Of a stretch of 54,385 bases of DNA, positions 4,534 to 54,385 are shown piece after piece. The DNA is from a virus. Lineage: Duplodnaviria > Caudoviricetes. Where the stretch lies: positions 1-54,385 of IMG/VR virus record IMGVR_UViG_3300045952_000282, one strand, 5' to 3'. A program made the position numbers and the translations under genes. The notes beneath the pieces were generated by a model. It was not told where the DNA came from, did not search any database, and worked only from the letters and a program-made list of their open reading frames with translations. Numbering within the stretch: position 1 is the stretch's first letter; each line of letters begins with the position of its first letter.

Positions 4534-4660
4534 CCCAACACTCCTCGTCACCGAGCTCAAGCACGAACGACTGGCCGACGCGCGGCAACTCCGTCGCCCA
4601 ACCGGAGACCGCAGTCGGATCTGCGTTGACACTGAGATCGATTAACCGGATGTGCATCAC
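4427..4660 (-). CDS. Hypothetical protein
   Basis: Start overlaps the stop of the minor head gene. Confidence 0.45.
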   Translation of the reverse strand: MMHIRLIDLSVNADPTAVSGWATELPRVGQSFVLELGDEECWVTGVVVSVDASSNTFRDSEGTCFLFAFESPNRPCA

Positions 4661-5508
4661 TCGTTTGACTCTCCGAGAATGTCGTCGAAAACAGGGTCCG
4701 CAAAACAGCGACAGTTGATAGGCTCGCCCGGGAGTCCTTCTGTCGGGTGGCCCTTCGGATACTTGAAAGTTTCACCGTCGAGCTGTCGGTGAAGCGGGCG
4801 AACGCGGGCATCGTGCACGCTGCGCCAGATGAACTTCTCCACACCGAGCGCCTGATGTCGCGCGGCATTAACCTGACCGTACATCTTCCCGACCTGATCC
4901 CGTGCAATGAGTTTCGACTTCTCCTCAGCGACGCCAAGTTTTAACTCGATCTCTTCCGCTAAATGCTTATGCAAGGTACCGTTAACAAGCGCGCGCGTCG
5001 CGGCCTGCTCAATCTCCGCTAGCGTCCGCTGCGGAAGCGCGGTGATGAGTGAGACGTTCTCATTAATAAATCCTTCGATCTGCGGTACGAGATTAGGCTC
5101 TCGCGCAAACACGTTCGCACCGAGCGCCGCGTGCACCTGGCGATCAAGCTGAACACGCTGATAGGTCGCAATCTGCCGCGCAAACTTACCGGCCAGTTCT
5201 TCGACCGCCTGCAGGGAGATCGCCCGGCCCAGCGCGGCCGTTGCTTCGGCGATGAGCTGGCGCACGCGCGAGCCCTCGCCCGCGTCGGTGCGCTCGTGCG
5301 CGGCGGACTCGACAAGACGTGGCAAGGCGTCACGCAGCGGCTGGAGCGAGCGTCGCACCTCGTCAACGATCCGCAGGAGAGCCGCGGCGTACTCGCGTTC
5401 AATTGTCTTCGGGAAGACCTGGCGGGGTATACGTCGACGCGGCGGTCGAATCCCGAGCGAACGGCGCAGACGGAGCAACCGCACGGTTTCTGCGGTACGG
5501 GGATTCAC
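4657..5508 (-). CDS. Minor head morphogenesis protein (SPP1 gp7/Mu gpF-like)
   Basis: LIARDQ...WRSVHDARVRPLH...PGEPINCRC. Confidence 0.9.
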   Translation of the reverse strand: MNPRTAETVRLLRLRRSLGIRPPRRRIPRQVFPKTIEREYAAALLRIVDEVRRSLQPLRDALPRLVESAAHERTDAGEGSRVRQLIAEATAALGRAISLQAVEELAGKFARQIATYQRVQLDRQVHAALGANVFAREPNLVPQIEGFINENVSLITALPQRTLAEIEQAATRALVNGTLHKHLAEEIELKLGVAEEKSKLIARDQVGKMYGQVNAARHQALGVEKFIWRSVHDARVRPLHRQLDGETFKYPKGHPTEGLPGEPINCRCFADPVFDDILGESNE

Positions 5509-7064
5509 TACTCCTCGTGCTTCCGTTTGCGTGTCTTTTTGCGGGGTGCTTCGTCTTTTTTGTCGGATTCCGATGGCTCACTCGGAGCTTCGGACGCGCT
5601 GACTTCAAGCTGTTTCTCAGCGAGTTCCCGTTCGGCTTCTTCCTCATCGAGTTCCCTTTGAGACTTCACAGGCGCGTCTGCGGCCGGCTCCAGTTTCGCG
5701 CGCGCTTCGAAATCAATCACAGTCTCAAAACTGTACTCGTCACCGCCGTAGCGATTGAGCGCTACCTCTTCGGCAGACAACACGCAGTTCGTGATGTTGA
5801 TGGAGTCAGCTTGCGCCTGGATCATGCGCGCCTCCGCCATCTCTTTCTCCGTCGCTTGCCAGAGGGGACGGAAGCGGAAACTCCAATGCTCTGGCTCCTT
5901 GATCTTGAGGGCCGCGAAAGTCACCTGTGCGATGTACTCGAGACGAGGGCGCAGCTTGCGATCCTGCAGGCCGGCAATCTTATCGTACCAGAACCGGATG
6001 TCCGCGTTCCCAGTGGCGTTCAGGCCGGCCGGACTCTGTCCCATGAGGCGCGTGACCGGGATATCGCCGGCTGCGGCGATGCGAACTGCGAACCGATCGA
6101 GCGTCTCTGGCATACCGGAGATCGGAGTCTGCTGTCTCTGGAAGTCGTCTTCTTTATCGACGACGACGATACGCGAGAAGCTCCGACCCATTTCGAGCGC
6201 TTGCAGGCGCGCCTTCACAGCCGTGGTGTTGTTCTCCGCGGCCATGATGTCGAAGTCTTTCATCTTATACACGCCCTGCGCAAAATCGCGCATGAGGTAC
6301 CCGGCCGCACTCCAAGCTACACCGAAGTCGAAGAGCACGCGGCGGACGCGGCTGAGAACGGAGTCACCCCAACCCTCGTAAGGTTGATCGCCGCGCTTCC
6401 GGGAGACGCGAATCCCTGGGAAGAGAATCAGACGCGTCTCGTGAATGAGCTGCTCACTGATGAAGCCGCCGCGGCCAACACCGTGCGGACGCAGACGCCA
6501 GAGCTCGACCTGGCCGTACTTCGGTGCCGTCGGGTTCTCGTAGTATGTCTCCGGGATCAGCTCGTCCGGCTGCAATGTCGTGAGGAAGTCGAAAGAGGTG
6601 ACAGTCTTCAGGTTGAGCGGCAGCTGCCAGCTCACCTGCATATCGTTGACGCCGAGCAGGATCGCCGCGCCCCCATACGCGCGCTCGTAGGAGATCGCGT
6701 CCCATAACGCCGGCGTGAGTCCGAGCTCTTCCCACTTCGAGTGCATCTTCTCCGCGATACCCTTCGCGTCGAGATTCTTGTCGGTGGCTTCGCGCACGCG
6801 AAGCTCGAACCCGGCGCGAAGCATCTCGTCGGCGTACGCCTCGACGATCTTAGCTGCCATGTCCTCGGTGCGCCAAAGGAGCGCCGCTTCCTCAATCGGG
6901 ACGATATCAGCGCGATAACTGTCCGCACTGCGCCTGTCCGCGCTAGTTCCGAAGCCGCCGAGGACGTTTACGTAATCATCACCACGCGCGGCCTTACGCG
7001 GTGCAGGACAGAGCGGGCAGGTCCCGCCGGTAAGTGCGCGGACGGTAGAGTGGGAGCAGGACAC
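5508..7064 (-). CDS. Portal protein (DUF1073 type) with N-terminal Cys/His peptide
   Basis: RAYGGAAI, IHETRL, WGDSVL, IPVTRLMGQSPAGLNATG motifs; precedes the minor head gene. Confidence 0.9.
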   Translation of the reverse strand: MSCSHSTVRALTGGTCPLCPAPRKAARGDDYVNVLGGFGTSADRRSADSYRADIVPIEEAALLWRTEDMAAKIVEAYADEMLRAGFELRVREATDKNLDAKGIAEKMHSKWEELGLTPALWDAISYERAYGGAAILLGVNDMQVSWQLPLNLKTVTSFDFLTTLQPDELIPETYYENPTAPKYGQVELWRLRPHGVGRGGFISEQLIHETRLILFPGIRVSRKRGDQPYEGWGDSVLSRVRRVLFDFGVAWSAAGYLMRDFAQGVYKMKDFDIMAAENNTTAVKARLQALEMGRSFSRIVVVDKEDDFQRQQTPISGMPETLDRFAVRIAAAGDIPVTRLMGQSPAGLNATGNADIRFWYDKIAGLQDRKLRPRLEYIAQVTFAALKIKEPEHWSFRFRPLWQATEKEMAEARMIQAQADSINITNCVLSAEEVALNRYGGDEYSFETVIDFEARAKLEPAADAPVKSQRELDEEEAERELAEKQLEVSASEAPSEPSESDKKDEAPRKKTRKRKHEE

Positions 7065-7071
7065 CGTCTAC

Positions 7072-7101
7072 AGTATAACGTCGACCATGCTAGCTCTGCA
7101 A
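7072..7101 (-). promoter_or_regulatory. Promoter for the portal operon (-10 TATACT with adjacent GTCGAC), probably leaderless
   Basis: TATACT at 7072-7077 lies 7 nt before the GTG at 7064. Confidence 0.5.
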
Positions 7102-7156
7102 TAATGTTATGAAATCATTTGGTTTTTCAACAGGTTGAAAGTCGGTCGCTATTCAC

Positions 7157-7192
7157 TTGTGTTCGGTGAACGGTCGACGTTATAGTGTCGAC
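7157..7192 (+). promoter_or_regulatory. Promoter TTGTGT-18-TATAGT with two GTCGAC flanking the -10
   Basis: -10 lies 6 nt before ATG 7193. Confidence 0.5.
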
Positions 7193-7414
7193 ATGGCGAG
7201 AGAGAAGAAACCAAGCTTTCAAGTGGGTGATGAGGTTGTTCTGGCGTCGCATGTTTCGACCTCGTACTACCCGGGCGTTCTTCGCGACACGGTATTGCGT
7301 GTGTCCGCAGTTTGCGGCACGGGCACAAAACGCAATCCGTGGACGCTGCGCGTCACCGACGGTACCAACTTCTGGGGGAATGAGCCGAACGACTTCGTTA
7401 AGGTGGTGCGCTAA
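7193..7414 (+). CDS. Hypothetical small protein (SH3-like FQVGDEV motif)
   Basis: ORF directly after the promoter. Confidence 0.6.
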   Translation: MAREKKPSFQVGDEVVLASHVSTSYYPGVLRDTVLRVSAVCGTGTKRNPWTLRVTDGTNFWGNEPNDFVKVVR

Positions 7415-7452
7415 CGCGCCGCCATTCTCTACCAAGCGCAAAGGAGCAATCT

Positions 7453-7647
7453 ATGTACACTGTCGAAAAACAACTGACCGCTCTCATACTCGGAACTCTC
7501 GCCCTTCTGGCAATCCTGGCGCTGTTCGGCGCCTGCGACACGTCCAGCCCACCCGAGATCGGGGAGTTGCAAACCGACTGCCCGGTAGATGTCGACGAGC
7601 TGTGCTTGATCGACAACGTTTGGCAGGAGTGTCCGGCTGTTGACTAG
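7453..7647 (+). CDS. Small putative lipoprotein
   Basis: RBS AAGGAG; hydrophobic signal ending LFGAC; Cys-rich acidic tail. Confidence 0.65.
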   Translation: MYTVEKQLTALILGTLALLAILALFGACDTSSPPEIGELQTDCPVDVDELCLIDNVWQECPAVD

Positions 7648-7658
7648 TTGTTGACTAG
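7638..7658 (+). repeat. Integrase arm-type sites, left pair (TGTTGACTAG x2)
   Basis: Exact 10-mers at 7638 and 7649. Confidence 0.7.
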
Positions 7659-7704
7659 CCGGCGGCTCTGAAGCGCTTTACAGCGTGGAACTGTCTGGAT
7701 TCAT

Positions 7705-7750
7705 TGGAGCCGATGGACAGGATTGAACTGTCGACCTACGGTTTACGAAT
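7705..7750 (-). other. attP core: 3' half of tRNA-Thr(CGT)
   Basis: Minus strand reads ATTCGTAA ACCGTAGGTC GACAG TTCAATC CTGTC CATCGGC T CCA (anticodon loop, T arm, acceptor strand, CCA); no 5' half; next to the integrase. Confidence 0.85.
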
Positions 7751-7867
7751 TCTTGGATCTACCGTCCCACGAACGTCCGTTCGGTCCCGGTCGCGCCTAA
7801 CATGCCTGATTCTAACGCAGGGTGATTCAACTCACGTCCCGGTCCGTCCCTCCGAGAACGCACCGCG

Positions 7868-7889
7868 TGTTGACTAGTCTGTTGACTAG
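7868..7889 (+). repeat. Integrase arm-type sites, right pair (TGTTGACTAG x2)
   Basis: Exact 10-mers at 7868 and 7880. Confidence 0.7.
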
Positions 7890-7917
7890 TGAGCCGGAAA
7901 AACACGACACTGACCTC

Positions 7918-8148
7918 ATGGCAAACGAACCTGAATGGAAGCCGATAGCCTGGCGCTACGAAACAGCAACCCTCCTAGCGGAGGTTTGGGAGACGGTTCA
8001 CGGAACGGTTCTATGGCGCATTCGTGACCGCGCAGGTCGCGTTGTAGCGGAAGGCGGCGCGGAAGACATGCCAGCCGCTCAACTCCGTGTCGCGCGTGAT
8101 TTAGAGAGATGCCTAACTGGCGACCTCAGGGTGACGCCGATTAGATGA
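7918..8148 (+). CDS. Hypothetical protein
   Basis: ATG 7918; stop overlaps the integrase start (ATGA). Confidence 0.55.
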   Translation: MANEPEWKPIAWRYETATLLAEVWETVHGTVLWRIRDRAGRVVAEGGAEDMPAAQLRVARDLERCLTGDLRVTPIR

Positions 8149-9404
8149 AGGTCCACTTCACGAAGCGCAGCCTTGAATCCCTAGAACCGCCGCGGGAAGG
8201 CTTCCAGCGCGTCGTCTGGGATACCGAGCTCCCGGGCTTCGGCGCGGTCGTCGGCCGACGCGGGATCACGTTCGTCGCGAACTTCCGCGCGAACGGGAAG
8301 CTCCGGCGGATGAAGATCGGCCAGCTAGGCGCGCCGCGGCCGGCCGGCGGGACCTGGACGCTCGCCGATGCGCGCAGGCGCGCGCGGGAGATCCTCGGCC
8401 AGGTCGCCGGAGGCGAAGACCCTAGCGCCGAACTCCGCGCGAACAAGGAAGCGCTCACGCTTGAAGAGGGGATCAAGCTGCATGTCACCGACATGCGGAA
8501 GCGAAAGTGCAGCGAGCGGTCGATCGAGACCTACGAAGAAGAGCTCGGCCGACACCTGAAAAACTGGCTGGATCGCCCGCTGACCGAGCTCACCGGTCTG
8601 ACGCTGCACAAGATACACAGCAAGCTAGAAGAACACCCACACGTCGCGAACCGCGTCGTTGCCGCAGTCTCCGCGGTCTGGAACACGGTCGACCGACTCC
8701 ACGAGCTCCCGGGTCGCAATCCTGCGTCACGCGTTCGACTGTACAGCGTCGAACCGTCGCGCCAGCGGATCGAAGATGAAGACCTCCCGGACTGGTACGC
8801 ACGCGTCCAGACCCTCACGCCGATCCGGCGCGACCTCTACCTAACATTTCTGTTCACCGGTCTGCGCTCCGAGGACGCGCGACACATCCGCTGGAACGAA
8901 GTAGACCTCGAGCGCGGCTCGCTCTACCGGCCGGATCCGAAGGGCGGCTCGAAGAAAGCGTTCACGCTCCCGCTCCCTAACACGATCGTTCAGATATTCA
9001 AACAACGCCAGGCGGAGAACGCGATACTGTTTGCACCGCACGGTGGCGATCATGAGTGGGTGTTTCCCTCGCGCTCGCGCAAAACCGGGAAGGTACAACC
9101 GGTCGCCGAGCCGAAGGAGCGCCGGACAAAGGACGGCAAGCGTAGCCGGAAGTCCGCCGACCTCGAGCAGTACCTACCCGGACCACACACGCTCCGGCGA
9201 ACCTACATCAGCGTCGGGCGTGAGATCGGGATCGCAGAAATAGACATGCACGCGCTCGCAAACCATTCATTTTCGAGCGGTAGAGTTCAGGATCAGTACG
9301 TCCGCCAGGCGTTCCAACACCTGGCTACCTGCCAAGCGCGCATCGAGGCCGCGCTCTGGACGCGGATCTCACTTTCCGACTTGCTACCGTCGACGTCGCC
9401 GTGA
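8145..9404 (+). CDS. int: Tyrosine integrase with N-terminal arm-binding domain (P4-like)
   Basis: WDTELPGFG arm domain; catalytic TGLR, HTLRR, NH and Y residues. Confidence 0.95.
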   Translation: MKVHFTKRSLESLEPPREGFQRVVWDTELPGFGAVVGRRGITFVANFRANGKLRRMKIGQLGAPRPAGGTWTLADARRRAREILGQVAGGEDPSAELRANKEALTLEEGIKLHVTDMRKRKCSERSIETYEEELGRHLKNWLDRPLTELTGLTLHKIHSKLEEHPHVANRVVAAVSAVWNTVDRLHELPGRNPASRVRLYSVEPSRQRIEDEDLPDWYARVQTLTPIRRDLYLTFLFTGLRSEDARHIRWNEVDLERGSLYRPDPKGGSKKAFTLPLPNTIVQIFKQRQAENAILFAPHGGDHEWVFPSRSRKTGKVQPVAEPKERRTKDGKRSRKSADLEQYLPGPHTLRRTYISVGREIGIAEIDMHALANHSFSSGRVQDQYVRQAFQHLATCQARIEAALWTRISLSDLLPSTSP

Positions 9405-9417
9405 TAGCGTCGACTCC

Positions 9418-9600
9418 ATGGGGTCAGAGCAGTACGTCGACGAGCGAGAGTTAGAGCGCCGGCTCAACATCTCGGCGAAGACCTGGCGCAACTGGCGCGC
9501 CGCACGAAAGGGTCCGCCGTATCGAAAGCTAGGGAAGCGGGTTGTCTACCTGTGGACCGAGGTGCAGGCGTGGATCGACAGGCAGAAGGTGGCCGCGTGA
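9418..9600 (+). CDS. Excisionase / AlpA-like HTH protein
   Basis: SAKTWRNWR..RKGPPYRKLGKRVVY....VQAWI. Confidence 0.85.
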   Translation: MGSEQYVDERELERRLNISAKTWRNWRAARKGPPYRKLGKRVVYLWTEVQAWIDRQKVAA

Positions 9601-10400
9601 GCGTCTTACCGCTGCATCACACGCACTCGCAGATCATTCGGCTCCTGCGGTGTCTTAAAAACACACCTGCAAACCCGAACACTACAAAACGCTGGTCAAC
9701 ATCTGCGCTCGTGCGCGCTGCGCGAATTAAATACCGGATCCTTACGCACGCCGTAAGGTGCGGAGTCGTGAAAATCAATCCGTGGGCCATCACCGACAAA
9801 GGAGAAAACTGGCTTCGTTGGGAAGATGGACAACTTAAAAGGAAAGCTAAGCTCATGCACGCCGACACAACAACCACCTGCCGCAACATTCTATTTTTAC
9901 TGTTTACACAACCACTCAATCCACTGACCGACGCCGCTAGGACCACGTCAGAGCTGCTGCGAGCGGTCGACTACTCCGCGAGTTCAAAGGAAGGGCGCCG
10001 ACTGCTGACCGCCTTGGCTAAAGACGGTTTGGTTTATCAGCCGGTCCCGGGCTACTGGCTTCTCACCGAAGCCGGGATAAAACAGCACGAACAGTTGAGT
10101 GTAATAGACAGACTAAAAACGATAAAAGAGCCAGTTGTCGCTGAAGATGGGCTGCAAAAAGCACGACGGCTCGTCGATCAACAATATAAAAAACCCCCTG
10201 TCAGCGATCTGGATCGCGTGGTGCGCCTCGAACGAAAAACTGCGGCGCAGAGGAAGACTCTCAAATACTACACCACACGAATCGAAAGTCTTTCGACCGC
10301 TCTGAAGAAATGCGAAGCCGAGCACAAAGAATTTCTTAATGCGCTTGATATGCTTCGTGCCCATCTTGCCCATCTTGGCGCGCTCGGAGCTCTGAAGTGA
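9597..10400 (+). CDS. Hypothetical protein, possibly tandem winged HTH plus coiled coil
   Basis: Repeated W.ITDKG / WLLTEAG wing motifs; GTGA coupling to the xis stop. Confidence 0.55.
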   Translation: MSVLPLHHTHSQIIRLLRCLKNTPANPNTTKRWSTSALVRAARIKYRILTHAVRCGVVKINPWAITDKGENWLRWEDGQLKRKAKLMHADTTTTCRNILFLLFTQPLNPLTDAARTTSELLRAVDYSASSKEGRRLLTALAKDGLVYQPVPGYWLLTEAGIKQHEQLSVIDRLKTIKEPVVAEDGLQKARRLVDQQYKKPPVSDLDRVVRLERKTAAQRKTLKYYTTRIESLSTALKKCEAEHKEFLNALDMLRAHLAHLGALGALK

Positions 10401-10618
10401 TCGCCACGTCGAGCAGCTTCGAAGATGCCACCTTCGACGACGAGCCGGACGATGAAACCGTCGAGCTACTCGTTCAACAAGGCTGGCGTGATTTTTTCAA
10501 CGGCCGGCCTAACGGGATATGGGCCGACATCAGTTGGTACTGGCTCGGGTGGGGTATGGCCCACGAAGCCGAACAAGCGCACAAGCTAGAAAAAGTCGAA
10601 GAAAGGAGAGCAGCATAA
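10397..10618 (+). CDS. Hypothetical protein
   Basis: Coupled ORF in operon. Confidence 0.55.
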   Translation: MIATSSSFEDATFDDEPDDETVELLVQQGWRDFFNGRPNGIWADISWYWLGWGMAHEAEQAHKLEKVEERRAA

Positions 10619-10773
10619 TGGAAGAAGTCACCGAGAAACTATCCGCCGAAGAGCTCGTTGTTCGCGAGCGTCTCGAAGACGCCGAGCTGGAGCGCTTGCT
10701 CCACGAGCTGGTGCTCGACCCGGCACACGCGGAGACGTGGGAGATCCTCGCGAGAGTGACGGTGTGGCTGTGA
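10618..10773 (+). CDS. Hypothetical small protein
   Basis: RBS AAGGAG; TAATG coupling. Confidence 0.55.
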   Translation: MEEVTEKLSAEELVVRERLEDAELERLLHELVLDPAHAETWEILARVTVWL

Positions 10774-11096
10774 AATTAACACCTAGAAAACTAGATGCAC
10801 TCGAGCAAGAGTTTATCAACACCAAATCTCACGATGAGCTAGGCTGCTGGGCGCATAAACACGCCGATGAAATCATCACTGCCTTACGTGAGGCGTGGGC
10901 GGAGCGGGACCTGGCGCGATCGGAATATACAGAGCTGCTCTGCAGCACACCGCTTGGACCGGATATCGCCCGCGAAGCCCGTGCCGACGAGCGTGAGGAG
11001 TGCGCGAAGATCGCTGACAAATATGATCAGGACGAGTGTGGCTCTAACTTCTGCTACTGGGTTGCAAGAGACATCCGCGCCCGGGGGAAACTATGA
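10770..11096 (+). CDS. Hypothetical protein
   Basis: GTGA coupling; EREECAKIAD...ARDIRAR motif common in phage small proteins. Confidence 0.6.
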   Translation: MKLTPRKLDALEQEFINTKSHDELGCWAHKHADEIITALREAWAERDLARSEYTELLCSTPLGPDIAREARADEREECAKIADKYDQDECGSNFCYWVARDIRARGKL

Positions 11097-11311
11097 CGCT
11101 ATCAAGCCACATTCAACACCTTCGCTCGCGCGGCTACAAGATCACGAAGATCTATCTGCGCGCCCGTCCGCGACGACCTTTATCAACCGCTCCGGTTGAG
11201 GTCGCCCCGGATCTCTGCGCGGAGTATCACACCGACTACATCATCGAGACCGAAGGCCCGAAGAGACGGCGGAAGAGTCGAGCGAAAGCTAAGACGATTG
11301 AGACTTCGTAA
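11093..11311 (+). CDS. Hypothetical basic protein
   Basis: ATGA coupling. Confidence 0.5.
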   Translation: MTLSSHIQHLRSRGYKITKIYLRARPRRPLSTAPVEVAPDLCAEYHTDYIIETEGPKRRRKSRAKAKTIETS

Positions 11312-11740
11312 ATCGCCCGACGCCGAACAGGAGCAGACCTACTAGGCAGAGGACACTCCCACTCTCGAAGCTGCCCTGCTGACAGGCCGTTGGACTGACC
11401 GCGGCCAGGAGCGCGCCGACTCCCATAAATAACTTACTCACCGCACCAGCGTATCAGCCGGAAAGTGTAAGTCGGAAGGTCCGCGCTTAATTTTGCGCGT
11501 TGTCGCCGTAACGCGCGGCTAAAAATGCATGCTGGCCAGCTACTTAGCTCTCCGGGCATGCGCTGTGCATTAAATAAATGCATGCACCCACATCTAGGAA
11601 GCGCTAGCCGACGTCGCCCGACAACCTCTCACCTAAATAAGCCCGACAAAGTGCAGATCTTGCGCGCTCCGTGTTACGTTTTAAGGCAGGGTGACGGGAG
11701 TCCCGCATGATTTGCGTGGCGTCGGGGCGCCCGGATTAGT

Positions 11741-12160
11741 ATGGGCACACGTCGTACACGTACAACGCACCATGAGCGACTCGCCGATGAAGGTTGGGCT
11801 CACGAGACGACGACGCTTTACAGCAAAGCATTTCATAGTGGCTTTTTTGCGCTGGTTGCCTATGTACCGGAGTTCGGGTGGGGCTGGAGCTTCCGACATC
11901 GCAACTGCACCATTACCCTCGCGAGCGGATTCGTTCGCAACCTTCTGCAAGCGCGAACCGCCGCTCTCAACGAGTTCGTCTCGTACAAAGAGGCCGCCCG
12001 TAAACTCCTCGAGCAGTCGCAAGGACACCACATCCTAGCCGCGCAGGCGCTCCGCACGCGCGCGGGCGACAACATCGACGCGATGTCTCCGTACAAAGCT
12101 CTTCTAGAGCTACTTGAAGACGCAGAGAATTGGGACAGCGAAGACCTGCCGGAAGACTAG
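11741..12160 (+). CDS. Hypothetical protein
   Basis: 139-aa ORF convergent with terL. Confidence 0.55.
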   Translation: MGTRRTRTTHHERLADEGWAHETTTLYSKAFHSGFFALVAYVPEFGWGWSFRHRNCTITLASGFVRNLLQARTAALNEFVSYKEAARKLLEQSQGHHILAAQALRTRAGDNIDAMSPYKALLELLEDAENWDSEDLPED

Positions 12161-13719
12161 CCGACCTTGCCTTGTTCGGTGCGGAGTCCGAGCGCCTTCA
12201 TCTTCGTCGCGTAGCTTGACGGAGTGCGGAAGTAGTTGAGCGCCTGCGTGAAGACGTCGACCTGATCGTCGCGCTTGCCGGCCGGGAACGCGCAGACCTC
12301 CGCAAGGAATTCTTCGACCCACGGCGCGCCGCGCGGCAACGCCACGTTCCCGCCTTCGACGTAGCTCTGCACCGCCATCGCCCGCGACTCTTTATCCGTA
12401 CCGACTTCGACTTCGATGATTCCCGGGATGTCGCGCCGGAGCTCTTCGACCACGTCCGGCCCCATGGCTTTCATCTCAACGATCACTTTGCGCGCGCGCC
12501 AGCGCTCACGCATGTCTTTAATCCGCCGCACCGTCTCGCGGAGCGAGATCTTCCCCTTCCACACTTCCAGCATGAAACGGTCGGGACCTTTGCGCGCAAC
12601 CGCGGCGATCGCGGTGTTCGAGCCCTTCAAGGTCTTCTTAGCCGCGCAGTCCACGGAGATAACGATATCCTCGAAGTTTTGCGGCTGTTCATCGTAATAC
12701 TTGAACCAGGAATATTTGAAGATCCCGCCCTCGCGCGCGAACGGGGCCTGTTGATACTGAGTCTGAAACTTGAACTCCGACTTCGCCCGCTCCGCTTCCA
12801 CGGTCTCAAGCGGGAAAATTTGAGGGCTGAGGCACTCGCCTTCGACCATTCGTATGTCGTACTCGCCGAGTGGCGAAGAACGACGCTCGCCGTCGAACAA
12901 CATCGGCAGACTAACCCGAGCCCAGCCGTGCTGCTCGGCCCAGGCGGCCAGGTCTTCGACGTGCGTCTTCTGACAAATCATGACCCGGGTCGAGAAGACC
13001 ATGCTGTTGACGCGGTTATCGACGGTGTTCACGTACCGGTCAATCACCGCTAGGCGCTGCACGTCCGATTCAACGTTGTTCGGGTCGTGCGGGTCGTCGA
13101 TCACAAGCATGTCCGCGCGTTCACCGACGATGTCCGCGTCCAATCCGCGCGCCGCGCGAAATCCGCCGATGGTGTTCAAGAATAACTCGACGCCGTCCGC
13201 GTCCCGGCGAATCTCCCACTCCGGGTGAAACGCCTCCTGGTACCACTCCGAGCGAATTAGGTCGCGCGCCATTCGCGAATCGCGAATCGCGACACGCGGG
13301 TTACACGACAAGCAAATTGCTTTCAGACCTGGCCAGCGGATCCACGCCCATGGGATTAAATACGTGAGGAATCGCGACTTCATGCACCCGGGCGGGATGG
13401 TGATGAGAAGGTTCTGCAAGCGCTGTCGGTAGGTCGTGTCGTCGTTCGTCTTTGCCCAATCCTCGACCAACACCTGCAGGTGATTCGCGAGGACGTCGAA
13501 GTACCAGACCCACGTGAGTTTCGCGGTCTCAACCCCGCTATTTGCCCACGCCTCGCGGAAGAACCGGGCGAAGGAGCGCCGGCACTGCTCGGCCAGGCGC
13601 TGCTGCGGCGTGATTGCGGACAGTACCGCGGTCACGATCGGTTTCACCTGACGGCCCGGCGGACAGACGGGACAGGTCCCGCCGGTCAGTTCGCGGATCG
13701 TGGTGTGGGTGCAGTTCAT
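12157..13719 (-). CDS. terL: Terminase large subunit
   Basis: Walker A-like IPPGCMKS, Walker B LVIDDP, QYQQAP, nuclease ISVD...DDQVD; ATG 13719 with GGAG RBS. Confidence 0.95.
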   Translation of the reverse strand: MNCTHTTIRELTGGTCPVCPPGRQVKPIVTAVLSAITPQQRLAEQCRRSFARFFREAWANSGVETAKLTWVWYFDVLANHLQVLVEDWAKTNDDTTYRQRLQNLLITIPPGCMKSRFLTYLIPWAWIRWPGLKAICLSCNPRVAIRDSRMARDLIRSEWYQEAFHPEWEIRRDADGVELFLNTIGGFRAARGLDADIVGERADMLVIDDPHDPNNVESDVQRLAVIDRYVNTVDNRVNSMVFSTRVMICQKTHVEDLAAWAEQHGWARVSLPMLFDGERRSSPLGEYDIRMVEGECLSPQIFPLETVEAERAKSEFKFQTQYQQAPFAREGGIFKYSWFKYYDEQPQNFEDIVISVDCAAKKTLKGSNTAIAAVARKGPDRFMLEVWKGKISLRETVRRIKDMRERWRARKVIVEMKAMGPDVVEELRRDIPGIIEVEVGTDKESRAMAVQSYVEGGNVALPRGAPWVEEFLAEVCAFPAGKRDDQVDVFTQALNYFRTPSSYATKMKALGLRTEQGKVG

Positions 13720-14279
13720 ACACCACACTCCGAACAACATCGGAAAGGGTAGTTCTCAACCGGGCCGGTTAGGTCGGCCAGCTGCTCGGTGACTTCGGCG
13801 CGTTCGGACTGGTGCGGCCGCGGTTTGCAGGCCGGACAGTCGCGAAGACCCGATCGCGAACAGTGTCGCTCGCGCCGACGACTGCGACTCACGATGCACC
13901 TCTAGTGATTTCAAGTAGATACAGCGATTTCGATTTTAGATCTGAAATTTTGAATACTTGGGCGATTTCGATTTCAAGATATGCGTATGTCAGGCTAGGC
14001 CGCCCGACTACATGTGGGGGGTGGGGGGCTGGTGTACGACCGGGTGGGTATCTGTGTGAATCCGCCTTACTTGTCGTGTGATAACCCCTATTAACACACC
14101 TATGATGGCGCGCATGGCGCGAATCCGAGTCAAGCAAGTGATTACAGAGGCTTGCGTTGTGGATTCTGGCGCAGAGTTGACTAGTCAACACTATAGGCAA
14201 CGTAACCATTCGCTATCACTAGGCTTCTCGGTGCAACCTAGGGTTAGCTTATTCCTGGGTTGACGGCCGCTCATGCTCG

Positions 14280-14750
14280 CTACTGGATAGCCAGCTCGGT
14301 CAAAGCTTCTCTATCTTCGCTCAGGTGAGCATGAGCTCGCTCCAGAGCCGCTAACTCGTCGTCGGACAGGTATCGGGCCAGCTCGTTGCCAATCTGGGCA
14401 GGCTCGACTTCCTGGACACGCAGGGTCGCAGGCGCTTGACCCCAGCCGCGGTCGTAGAGCAGCTTGGCCGCTTGCACGACAACGGCGTTCGCTGTGTGGG
14501 GATCCATCGCAATGTCGTAAACCTTACGCGTTAACTTAGCGAAATCCACTACATCGCGGACCATTGCGGCGAGACCTTTTGGCCGCCCGCCGCCAGGTAT
14601 CGGCGGGCTTCCCGGTAAAATCCTTCCGGTTTTTGGGTCGCGAAGCGGTTTGAGTGTTTTCGCGGCCGGTTTGTGTCCTTTGGTAGGCATATGTAGGGTC
14701 GTTGCGGTCGATGTAGGCGACTTTGATTTCGAGGCCCCCGTCAGGCCCAT
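14280..14750 (-). CDS. terS: Terminase small subunit (DUF5681-like); start may be 14690
   Basis: TGRILPG...GGGRPKG and AAKLLYDRGWG motifs; upstream of terL. Confidence 0.75.
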   Translation of the reverse strand: MGLTGASKSKSPTSTATTLHMPTKGHKPAAKTLKPLRDPKTGRILPGSPPIPGGGRPKGLAAMVRDVVDFAKLTRKVYDIAMDPHTANAVVVQAAKLLYDRGWGQAPATLRVQEVEPAQIGNELARYLSDDELAALERAHAHLSEDREALTELAIQ

Positions 14751-18094: not shown

Positions 18095-18120
18095 AACAGT
18101 CGACACGTCGACGCTATAAT
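18092..18120 (+). promoter_or_regulatory. Promoter TAGAAC-17-TATAAT with two GTCGAC in the spacer
   Basis: Perfect -10 lies 6 nt before GTG 18127. Confidence 0.65.
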
Positions 18121-18126
18121 GTAAGT

Positions 18127-51718: not shown

Positions 51719-51724
51719 GTTCAA

Positions 51725-51753
51725 AGTATAGCGTCGACGGGTCGACGGTGCTA
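51725..51753 (-). promoter_or_regulatory. Promoter TAGCAC-17-TATACT with two GTCGAC in the spacer
   Basis: Same layout as 18092..18120. Confidence 0.65.
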
Positions 51754-53713: not shown

Positions 53714-54225
53714 TCAACCTCCCACGTGATAGCGCCGAGCAACCGGCCAGTATCAACGAGAGGACGCCGCGAACCCTTCCGCTCGATCGTCGCAGGCGCG
53801 TTCGGAGGCGGCACGCCAGCTCCGGTCGTGATCGTTTTCTTGACAAGGGTCGCGCCCCACGCGCCCAAGCGCCCAAGCGCACGCGCGGCCGACGGCCTCG
53901 GCTTCTGTCGCTTCCAGAACGCCAAGCTGCGTAGCGTCGAGCGAGTACGCGAGAACACAAACTGACTCGCCAGTTCAGCGATCTTCTTCGCTACCTCTTC
54001 GCGATTCTGCTCGAACGTACGGCGAATGAACGAGCGCTGCGGCACGCCGGCGCGCGGCGACCCGAACTCGTGGATCGCGGCCAGCTCGACCGCGCTGATT
54101 CCCACTTGCACGCGCCTGTCGCTACTCTTCAGAACGCCAACCTTTACTGACGAACTCCCGAGCTTCGCGAGTTGCCGCTTTAGCGCTAACCCCTCGCGCG
54201 TCCATTTAGGTTTACGACGCGCCAT
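53710..54225 (-). CDS. Neck / tail-completion protein
   Basis: AAIHEFG...P.RSFIR; PNAP.TI.RKGS..PL.DTG.L. Confidence 0.85.
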   Translation of the reverse strand: MARRKPKWTREGLALKRQLAKLGSSSVKVGVLKSSDRRVQVGISAVELAAIHEFGSPRAGVPQRSFIRRTFEQNREEVAKKIAELASQFVFSRTRSTLRSLAFWKRQKPRPSAARALGRLGAWGATLVKKTITTGAGVPPPNAPATIERKGSRRPLVDTGRLLGAITWEVE

Positions 54226-54385
54226 GAGTCACCCAACGACGGCGAACCTCGCCATTGTCCCGCGAAGAAGGGTTCGGTACTCCTGACCGAATACGGTCTT
54301 GTCGAATGTCGGGTCGGTCCCGTCCGGTGAGAACGCCATATACTGACGACTCAATCCGCCAGCGGACTCACCGATGACAGTTCCG
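53977..54385. repeat. Terminal overlap, right copy (divergent allele of 1..409)
   Basis: Colinear with 1..409 at offset 53976; includes the 3' end of a variant DUF4054 gene. Confidence 0.95.

Follow-up and report, generated by a model that had tools for sequence, protein, structure and literature searches.

Shared N-terminal peptide of portal and large terminase

Why do the portal protein and the large terminase subunit (TerL) of one phage start with the same short Cys/His peptide? The question is raised by the IMG/VR virus record IMGVR_UViG_3300045952_000282, a complete record (CheckV 100% complete) that was analyzed over its full length of 54,385 bases and is called the window throughout. 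A preliminary description of this DNA had reported the peptide on both proteins, and it was found where expected: on the minus strand TerL and portal both start M-x-C-x-H-x7-GG-T-C-P-x-C-P, with the portal reading (GTG)M-SCSHSTVRALTGGTCPLCP from 7064 to 7005 and TerL reading MNCTHTTIRELTGGTCPVCP from 13719 to 13660. A total of 14 of the 20 residues were identical. The peptides had been given correctly, but the first codon of the portal on this strand is GTG and not ATG. The four features concerned are the following.

5508..7064, minus strand: portal protein, 518 amino acids (aa), start GTG 7064
12157..13719, minus strand: TerL, 520 aa, start ATG 13719
7005..7064, minus strand: portal N-terminal tag (GTG)MSCSHSTVRALTGGTCPLCP, paralogous copy
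13660..13719, minus strand: TerL N-terminal tag MNCTHTTIRELTGGTCPVCP with Cys3, His5, Cys16 and Cys19

At the DNA level the two copies have the string ACCGGCGGGACCTG of 14 nucleotides (nt) in common and were detected as a repeat (D6) of 7006-7059 with 13661-13714, in which 44 of 54 nt matched (81% identity). As a chance control, 10.45 million pairs of 54-nt segments of the window were sampled; none of them hit 44 matches, and the maximum was 32. The degenerate pattern C-x-H-x7-GG-x-CP-x-C yielded exactly 2 matches in the window and 0 in 100 shuffles, and a phmmer comparison of a relative's portal (P0111) with the TerL frame of the window detected the peptide at E = 2e-06. For codons 2-20 the Nei-Gojobori method counted 6 differences at 15.7 synonymous sites and 7 at 41.3 non-synonymous sites, corresponding to a ratio of non-synonymous to synonymous rates (dN/dS) of ~0.36 between the TerL and portal copies. 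The earlier proposal that likeness in the DNA combined with synonymous differences reflects selection on the peptide was borne out by the shared string and by this ratio.

Among 11 aligned tags Cys3, Cys16 and Cys19 were invariant and His5 was present in 10, so that the C-H-C-C ligand pattern of the preliminary description is kept in relatives. Each copy showed a signature of its own across relatives, I8 with CPVCPP on TerL and V8 with CPLCPAPRK on the portal; the portal version (V8...CPLCPAPRK) was retained in the portals P0111, P0233, P0235 and P0113. By these comparisons the tag is a genuine module, ~20 residues long and translated, that follows the pattern Cys-x-His-x10-Cys-Pro-x-Cys, and purifying selection on it as a peptide is supported for both proteins.

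The proteins themselves are, by their profile matches, ordinary members of the Terminase_6-type TerL and Phage_portal_3 families. TerL matched phrog_38 (E = 8.9e-77, residues 48-512, N-terminal ATPase part included) and, with its C-terminal RNase-H-like nuclease domain, Terminase_6C PF17289 (E = 4.5e-13, residues 361-503). The portal matched Phage_portal_3 PF06381 (E = 5.8e-77, profile positions 6-356 of 357) and phrog_146 (E = 2.2e-96, beginning at residue 23). Solved structures related to it are PDB 9jlf, 8hds and 9l01.

Start codons and a probable leaderless promoter motif

The preliminary description had considered that the true starts might lie downstream of the peptides, or that related phages might lack the motif. 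The sequence supports start codons that include the peptide in both genes, and relatives retain it. For the portal, no ATG, GTG or TTG other than GTG 7064 precedes the conserved segment R-x-D-x-[WY]-x-N-x-L-x-G-x-G of the family (invariants D29, G37 and D43), an in-frame TAG lies two codons ahead of it, and the portals of close relatives have an ATG at the equivalent place (MACTH...). The public portal gene call P0112 (450 aa) begins at Met69 and omits both the tag and the conserved N-terminal segment; this is probably an annotation error caused by a leaderless GTG start. Similar starts are likely mis-annotated elsewhere. Two further features adjoin the starts.

7065..7085, minus strand: promoter-like box GTCGACGTTATACTGT plus 5 nt, immediately ahead of the portal GTG
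13716..13892, minus strand: open reading frame (ORF) of 58 aa with CPAC...CSEC, its stop overlapping the TerL ATG

A TATACT box 7 nt ahead of GTG 7064 is part of the recurrent motif GTCGACGYTATANTGT, for which 19 matches at <=3 mismatches were found in the window versus 2.07 expected. The four best copies are located at 7070-7085 (minus strand), 7173-7188 (plus), 18107-18122 (plus) and 51723-51738 (minus), followed by 15 weaker ones. Apart from the portal copy, the three near-perfect copies lie 6 nt before ATG 7193, GTG 18127 and GTG 51718, each opening a long ORF; GTG 18127 starts a lipoprotein-like protease and GTG 51718 the tail sheath. In all four, the start codon (GTG in three of them, ATG in one) follows a TATAnT box at a distance of 6-7 nt. 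This arrangement suggests that GTCGACGYTATANTGT marks phage promoters making leaderless mRNAs, and a leaderless portal mRNA is probable. The gene call of the relative P0235 is 18 codons longer upstream and reads ...TLYCR..., as does the promoter box of the window in another frame; because of this match the box seems to be conserved as DNA. In three relatives (L150-L152), TATACT followed by 7 nt and ATG was also observed ahead of several small ORFs.

The TerL ORF is open from ATG 13740. The supported start is ATG 13719: a GGAG precedes it by 8 nt, and it shares an ATGA with the stop of the preceding 58-aa ORF. This small ORF, translationally coupled to TerL via the ATGA, encodes a zinc-ribbon-like protein with four Cys and was without Pfam match.

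The tag as native N-terminus of a TerL clade

Using a cutoff of E <= 1e-20, 106 TerL homologs were collected, 4 of which carried the tag; the TerL of the GenBank phage MW202816.1 was tagged as well. A scan of IMG/VR with the portal alignment yielded 66 loci, TerL was recognized in 51 of them, and a tagged TerL was found in 6 (L149, L150, L151, L152, L154 and L170). Together these are 11 tagged TerLs, namely P0005, P0006, P0009, P0011, P0237/MW202816.1 and the six from IMG/VR. In a TerL tree of 137 rows, calculated with the tag removed, 10 of the 11 fell into one 15-row clade with 99% local support. The nearest untagged rows, including P0007 and P0010, begin at or inside the conserved core and may be truncated calls. 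Because of this clustering and the possible truncation of the nearest untagged rows, the tag is best read as a native N-terminus that was ancestral to one Terminase_6-type TerL clade.

Further searches added little to this set. A second IMG/VR scan, with the tagged TerLs, gave 80 loci with L235 as the sole tagged one, located on the same contig as L170, and a metagenome scan with the TerL alignment gave only 2 distant loci. A 'TCPAC' upstream of TerL in MW202675.1 was rejected as a chance match, as a stop codon precedes it. Among 8000 scored candidates, the hits of a profile built from 11 tags were all TerL (5) or portal (6) proteins. When the two peptides of the window were used in a full HMMER scan, only the window's own TerL and P0111 were returned, besides one false hit, the tandem-repeat protein P0240. 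The strict DNA pattern was found in IMG/VR at 34 loci with the right spacing versus 27 with a wrong-spacing control, and none of the 34 was located at the start of TerL or portal. The only look-alike outside TerL and portal among the pattern hits was a free-standing ORF of ~57 aa in the IMG/VR locus L052 (on the minus strand, near 6083 in the reverse complement) reading ...MRECRRCQHLTVVGTLGGTCPTCPRP (...CQHLTVVGTLGGTCPTCPRP).

In L150 and L152 a low-complexity linker of >100 residues separates the tag from the TerL core, so that the tag is a small tethered module. In the linker of the L152 TerL (5331-7328) an additional four-Cys element, CPKC...CSAC, was observed between the N-terminal tag and the ATPase core.

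A rare tag in the place of the usual portal arm

On portals the tag was rare. It was found in 5 of 120 listed homologs and in P0236, found later. None of the portals of the 66 IMG/VR loci, of 80 GTDB genome loci, or of the 16 seen in the further 80 IMG/VR TerL loci carried it, and a single-protein portal scan of IMG/VR found nothing. The portal tree, with 121 rows, placed the 7 tagged ones in 4 separate groups, the window with P0111 and P0113, P0124 with P0236, P0136, and P0187. The three lineages beyond that of the window have the tag at the same position at 42-44% identity. The idea that the tag is a general joint feature of TerL and portal did not hold, since seven other phages with a tagged TerL (L149-L152, L154, L170 and MW202816.1) have an untagged portal.

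Six of these seven untagged portals carry a GNPxGRP-type arm, detected by a regular expression for the motif in L149-L152 and L154 and by Pfam in MW202816.1; the L170 portal has neither arm. The nearest untagged kin of the tagged portals have complete N-termini with GRFxKGxSGNPxGRP at the place of the tag, ahead of the conserved R-DGW-N-LTG segment. Among the 83 of the 120 listed portals with a recognizable N-terminal core, the regular expression assigned 5 to the zinc tag, 33 to the GNP-type arm and 45 to neither. In Pfam this arm corresponds to DUF5681 (PF18932), which matched the portal P0125 at E = 1e-6 and the MW202816.1 portal at E = 2e-6. The window portal has no PF18932 match at E <= 0.1, and the zinc tag occupies the arm's place.

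Near TerL, a protein similar to the small terminase subunit (TerS) is encoded in the window.

14280..14750, minus strand: TerS-like protein P0239; its basic arm ...GRILPGSPPIPGGGRPKG is degenerate

For P0239, neither Pfam nor PHROG gave a match. By jackhmmer (E 1e-20 to 1e-36) it is homologous to the ORFs that immediately precede TerL in the relatives L149-L152, L154, L161 and L163, and 5 of these 7 ORFs have a DUF5681 match. On the TerS-like ORFs of L161 and L163 the matches reach ~position 68 of 77; on portals they cover only model positions ~2-28, about the first 20 positions. Matches of >27.5 bits were obtained for P0125, P0002 and the TerS-like ORFs of L152, L161 and L163. From this distribution, DUF5681 is in fact the family of the TerS-like proteins whose genes immediately precede TerL. 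PF06381 portals thus appear to carry commonly the N-terminal arm of the TerS-like subunit, and the lineage of the window carries the TerL module instead. The preliminary description had known of no N-terminal tag shared by portal and TerL; for shared tags as such there is a precedent here, as PF06381 portals commonly carry the DUF5681 arm of the TerS-like proteins. A stricter rule, by which the portal arm always equals that of the ORF upstream of TerL, was discarded, as this ORF lacks the GNP motif in MW202816.1.

Origin of the portal copy

Portal and TerL of the window are separated by a lysogeny cassette on the opposite strand.

7157..12160, plus strand: lysogeny cassette of 5.1 kb between TerL and portal, also containing small ORFs
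8145-9404, plus strand: tyrosine integrase of the cassette (Arm-DNA-bind_3 and Phage_integrase)
9418-9600, plus strand: excisionase-like gene of the cassette (HTH_17)

The portal tag of the window agrees in 14 of 20 residues with the TerL tags of the window and of P0006, and in 8 of 20 with that of L149; by this count its nearest counterparts are the TerL tags of the lineage to which the window belongs. Relatives of the window are 75% identical in TerL and 87-88% in the portals (BLASTP), and because each copy keeps its own signature across them, the duplication predates the diversification of the lineage. The copied DNA starts 5 nt ahead of the start codon, fades after codons 20-24 and, on the portal side, adjoins a divergent promoter region at the cassette edge. 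The preliminary description had offered a duplication at the edges of the inserted cassette. Part of this stood, as the portal copy lies exactly at the cassette/portal junction. The remainder did not: the cassette ends at ~12160, and the repeats at 7005-7064 and 13660-13719 flank TerL as well as the cassette, and the duplication is older than the split from the relatives (TerL 75%, portals 87-88%). Because the repeats enclose TerL too, they are not a target-site duplication of the cassette; an attachment-site origin was likewise rejected, as the repeats do not stand at both ends of the inserted DNA.

Most likely, the TerL 5' end was copied within the genome long ago, and this copy, now the portal tag, took the place of the usual portal arm. 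In the ancestor of the phage and its close relatives ~65-75 nt of the TerL 5' end would have replaced the portal arm, at the place where the portal gene today borders on the opposite-strand cassette and a new leaderless promoter, and both copies would since have been held by purifying selection.

The region between the two genes is variable in relatives. TerL and portal are adjacent in L154, and 2-2.6 kb of mostly opposite-strand ORFs lie between them in L149-L152, by which the TerL-portal junction appears to be a recurrent insertion site. A second case of tag duplication was observed in L151. Compared with L152 (5331-5560), the L151 stretch 4565-5479 was found to contain an Endonuclease_7 (HNH-type) gene (E = 2e-15) behind the TerL tag. 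A 76-aa remnant ORF there holds the old tag and linker, with DNA near-identical to that of L152, and the TerL body has a second tag copy at its start, overlapping the stop of the endonuclease gene. From this re-tagging after a mobile-gene insertion, the TerL body evidently needs the tag. A small serine recombinase was also found between the TerS-like gene and TerL (L151 3909-4565, L152 4675-5331 and the equivalent in L150); that of L151 matched Resolvase (E = 2e-36) and HTH_7. The stop of the recombinase gene abuts or overlaps the TerL start codon. Judged by its position, this is an unusual placement for a resolvase.

Proposed function and competing explanations

The tag is most likely, by its ligand pattern, a putative small zinc knuckle at the extreme N-terminus, joined to the body by a short or Pro-rich flexible linker. 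As an accessory module it is, in our view, undescribed, and by its transfer to the portal the modular N-terminal arms found in this portal family gain a new variant. As the tag occupies the DUF5681 slot, the two are taken as functionally interchangeable: the knuckle would be a small binding arm on a flexible tether, and the common target of such arms would most simply be the DNA being packaged, or else a shared packaging partner. DNA is considered the simplest target by analogy with two systems. In HK97, the N-terminal arm of TerS occupies the DNA minor groove with Lys4, Arg5 and Arg7 along it, as described in an excerpt of PMC11331095; the Pam3 portal, a sequence relative of the window portal, anchors a DNA lasso of ~160 bp at its wing, as described in an excerpt of PMC9942802. 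For the reading as a whole, with a TerL-native knuckle copied to the portal, replacing the DUF5681 arm and binding a shared target, we see about an even chance.

Several observations weigh against parts of this reading. Knuckles that bind nucleic acids are typically strongly basic and contain aromatic residues; neither applies to the tag. Gln takes the place of His in one tagged portal (P0136), and the TerL tag of L154 has C-H and not C-x-H. In Pfam at E <= 10, the TerL peptide gave only two hits, both at chance level and not to zinc families, and the portal peptide gave none. In the search with the tag profile, 8000 word-sharing candidates were scored and 10 of the 11 hits were training sequences. 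In the AlphaFold2 (AF2) models, TerL has a mean predicted local distance difference test (pLDDT) value of 88, with only 63-66 for the first 30 residues (helix 6-11, then coil), and residues 1-50 of the portal have 35-49 (helix 7-12). Apart from the matches of >27.5 bits given above, DUF5681 scored below the Pfam gathering score on the portals and on several of the TerS-like ORFs. Finally, the cognate TerL is unseen for three of the four tagged-portal lineages (P0124/P0236, P0136 and P0187), so that copying from the own TerL is shown for the lineage of the window only. The tag also scored 0.79 in the atlas, below the noise mark.

Binding of a protein instead of DNA is a serious alternative because the tag is neither very basic nor aromatic. 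In its specific form the knuckle would bind a packaging protein such as the TerS-like protein; TerL would form the holo-terminase in this way, and the portal copy would capture the partner and bring the terminase to the procapsid. The N-terminus of lambda TerL is its TerS-binding region, which counts for such docking. By contrast, portal N-termini generally lie in the wing inside the capsid and not in the terminase-docking clip, which counts against it. The conserved small hydrophobic helix face (I/V8, L11) and the little net charge of the tag are in favor of a protein partner, and the fact that PF06381 portals otherwise carry the arm of the other terminase subunit would fit a mimicry of terminase arms. 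However, TerS generally binds TerL by its C-terminal part and DNA by its N-terminal part according to the excerpt of PMC11331095, and since the N-terminal part generally binds DNA, the DUF5681 arm is more likely a DNA arm. A complex prediction of the TerS-like protein with TerL residues 1-60 and Zn, run without controls, scored 0.01 versus a mark of 0.32 and speaks neither for nor against docking. Overall, we consider docking unlikely, though a possibility to be reckoned with.

A tolerated relic without function on the portal is improbable. Insertion of the cassette would have cut the portal from its operon, and the recombination supplying a new promoter and start would have brought the TerL 5' end along. 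This scenario would agree with the portal copy lying right where the cassette ends and following a leaderless promoter box, with the repeated insertions at the TerL-portal junction across relatives and with the tag duplication beside the inserted Endonuclease_7 gene of L151. However, the Cys, His, Gly and Pro positions are all kept in the portals P0111, P0233, P0235 and P0113 while others vary, dN/dS between the copies is ~0.36, and three more portal lineages at 42-44% identity are tagged at the same position. Moreover, a plain N-terminus would have been available, as 45 of the 83 portals have neither arm.

It is very improbable that the shared 54 nt act as DNA or RNA (recombination, pac or regulatory site, or mRNA 5' structure) with the peptide being incidental: the identical 14-nt core and nearby recombinase or mobile genes (resolvase before TerL in L150-L152, Endonuclease_7 in L151, the integrase cassette) would agree with such an element, but the tag is kept as a peptide at 32-45% protein identity with spacing varying by one residue, the differences between the copies are enriched at synonymous sites, and the 5' contexts differ, the portal being probably leaderless and TerL having a Shine-Dalgarno sequence and translational coupling.

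Returning to a TerL-native knuckle that was copied to the portal, a more general and rather doubtful extension would be that the N-terminus of PF06381 portals is a swappable adaptor. It would copy an arm of the phage's own terminase subunit, usually of TerS type, here of TerL type and possibly so in the three other lineages, and portal and terminase would compete for, or hand over, the same target, either the DNA end or a docking site, during packaging. If true, this would be a mimicry-based hand-off undescribed for any packaging motor.

Comparison with known systems

A close parallel is the DUF5681 arm. Like the tag, it is a short module at the extreme N-terminus before the same conserved portal segment, it is common to the portal and a terminase subunit of one phage (L163 and L069 by Pfam), and it occupies the position held by the zinc tag in the window. 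In contrast to the tag, it is basic, Gly/Pro-rich and without Cys/His, it is shared with the TerS-like protein and not with TerL, and it is common (33 of 83 portals by regular expression, versus 5 of 83 for the zinc tag). In the literature, one listed paper mentions DUF5681. The CCHC knuckles of retroviral nucleocapsids are likewise very small, with three Cys and one His binding one metal; they have the spacing C-x2-C-x4-H-x4-C and aromatic and basic nucleic-acid-binding residues. The tag differs in ligand order and spacing and has no aromatic or strongly basic residues. With homing-endonuclease insertions beside terminase genes, the window has a repeat in common, as the repeat around the insert of L151 parallels the tag repeat of the window. 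The differences are that the insert of the window is a tyrosine-integrase cassette and that the second tag is fused to the portal.

According to the excerpt, the HK97 TerS arm is likewise flexible, lies at the N-terminus of a packaging protein and becomes ordered once on its target. The arm lacks a metal site, is found on TerS only and shows no sequence similarity to the tag, so that this is an analogy and not a family relationship. In the papers covered, zinc-binding elements within a terminase are described only for herpesvirus pUL28/pUL56, where an excerpt of PMC9611059 links the zinc fingers to DNA binding or subunit contacts. In that description these fingers are internal, on the TerS-equivalent subunit of eukaryotic viruses, not on the portal and of unrelated sequence. 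In titles and abstract openings of the papers listed, no zinc module was described at the N-terminus of TerL or portal in phages.

Although TerL and portal are the two best-studied parts of the phage packaging motor, structures usually do not show their flexible N-terminal ends, which are ignored. In the present case these ends are modular, as a Cys/His module marks a whole TerL clade and can replace the DUF5681 arm on the portal, and TerS, TerL and portal would be linked via interchangeable N-terminal arms. With its ~20 residues, the tag is a defined handle for studying by experiment the way in which terminase, DNA and portal meet.

Further features of the window

PHROG matches in the window comprised a major head protein, tail sheath, baseplate and tape measure as well as a sigma factor, DNA polymerase, two methyltransferases and an endolysin. 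According to these matches the phage is contractile-tailed and temperate. A terminal direct repeat pairs 1-300 with 53977-54276, and the following gene was also listed.

4657-5508: Mu-F-like protein

Within the cassette, ~400 nt from the integrase gene, the 3' fragment of a tRNA gene (T-arm, acceptor strand and CCA) was observed at ~7708-7750 on the minus strand. A whole tRNA was found at this site neither by ARAGORN nor by Rfam (the latter run on 7000-8200). Integration into a tRNA gene of the host probably uses this fragment as the attP core, and the host could be identified with its help.

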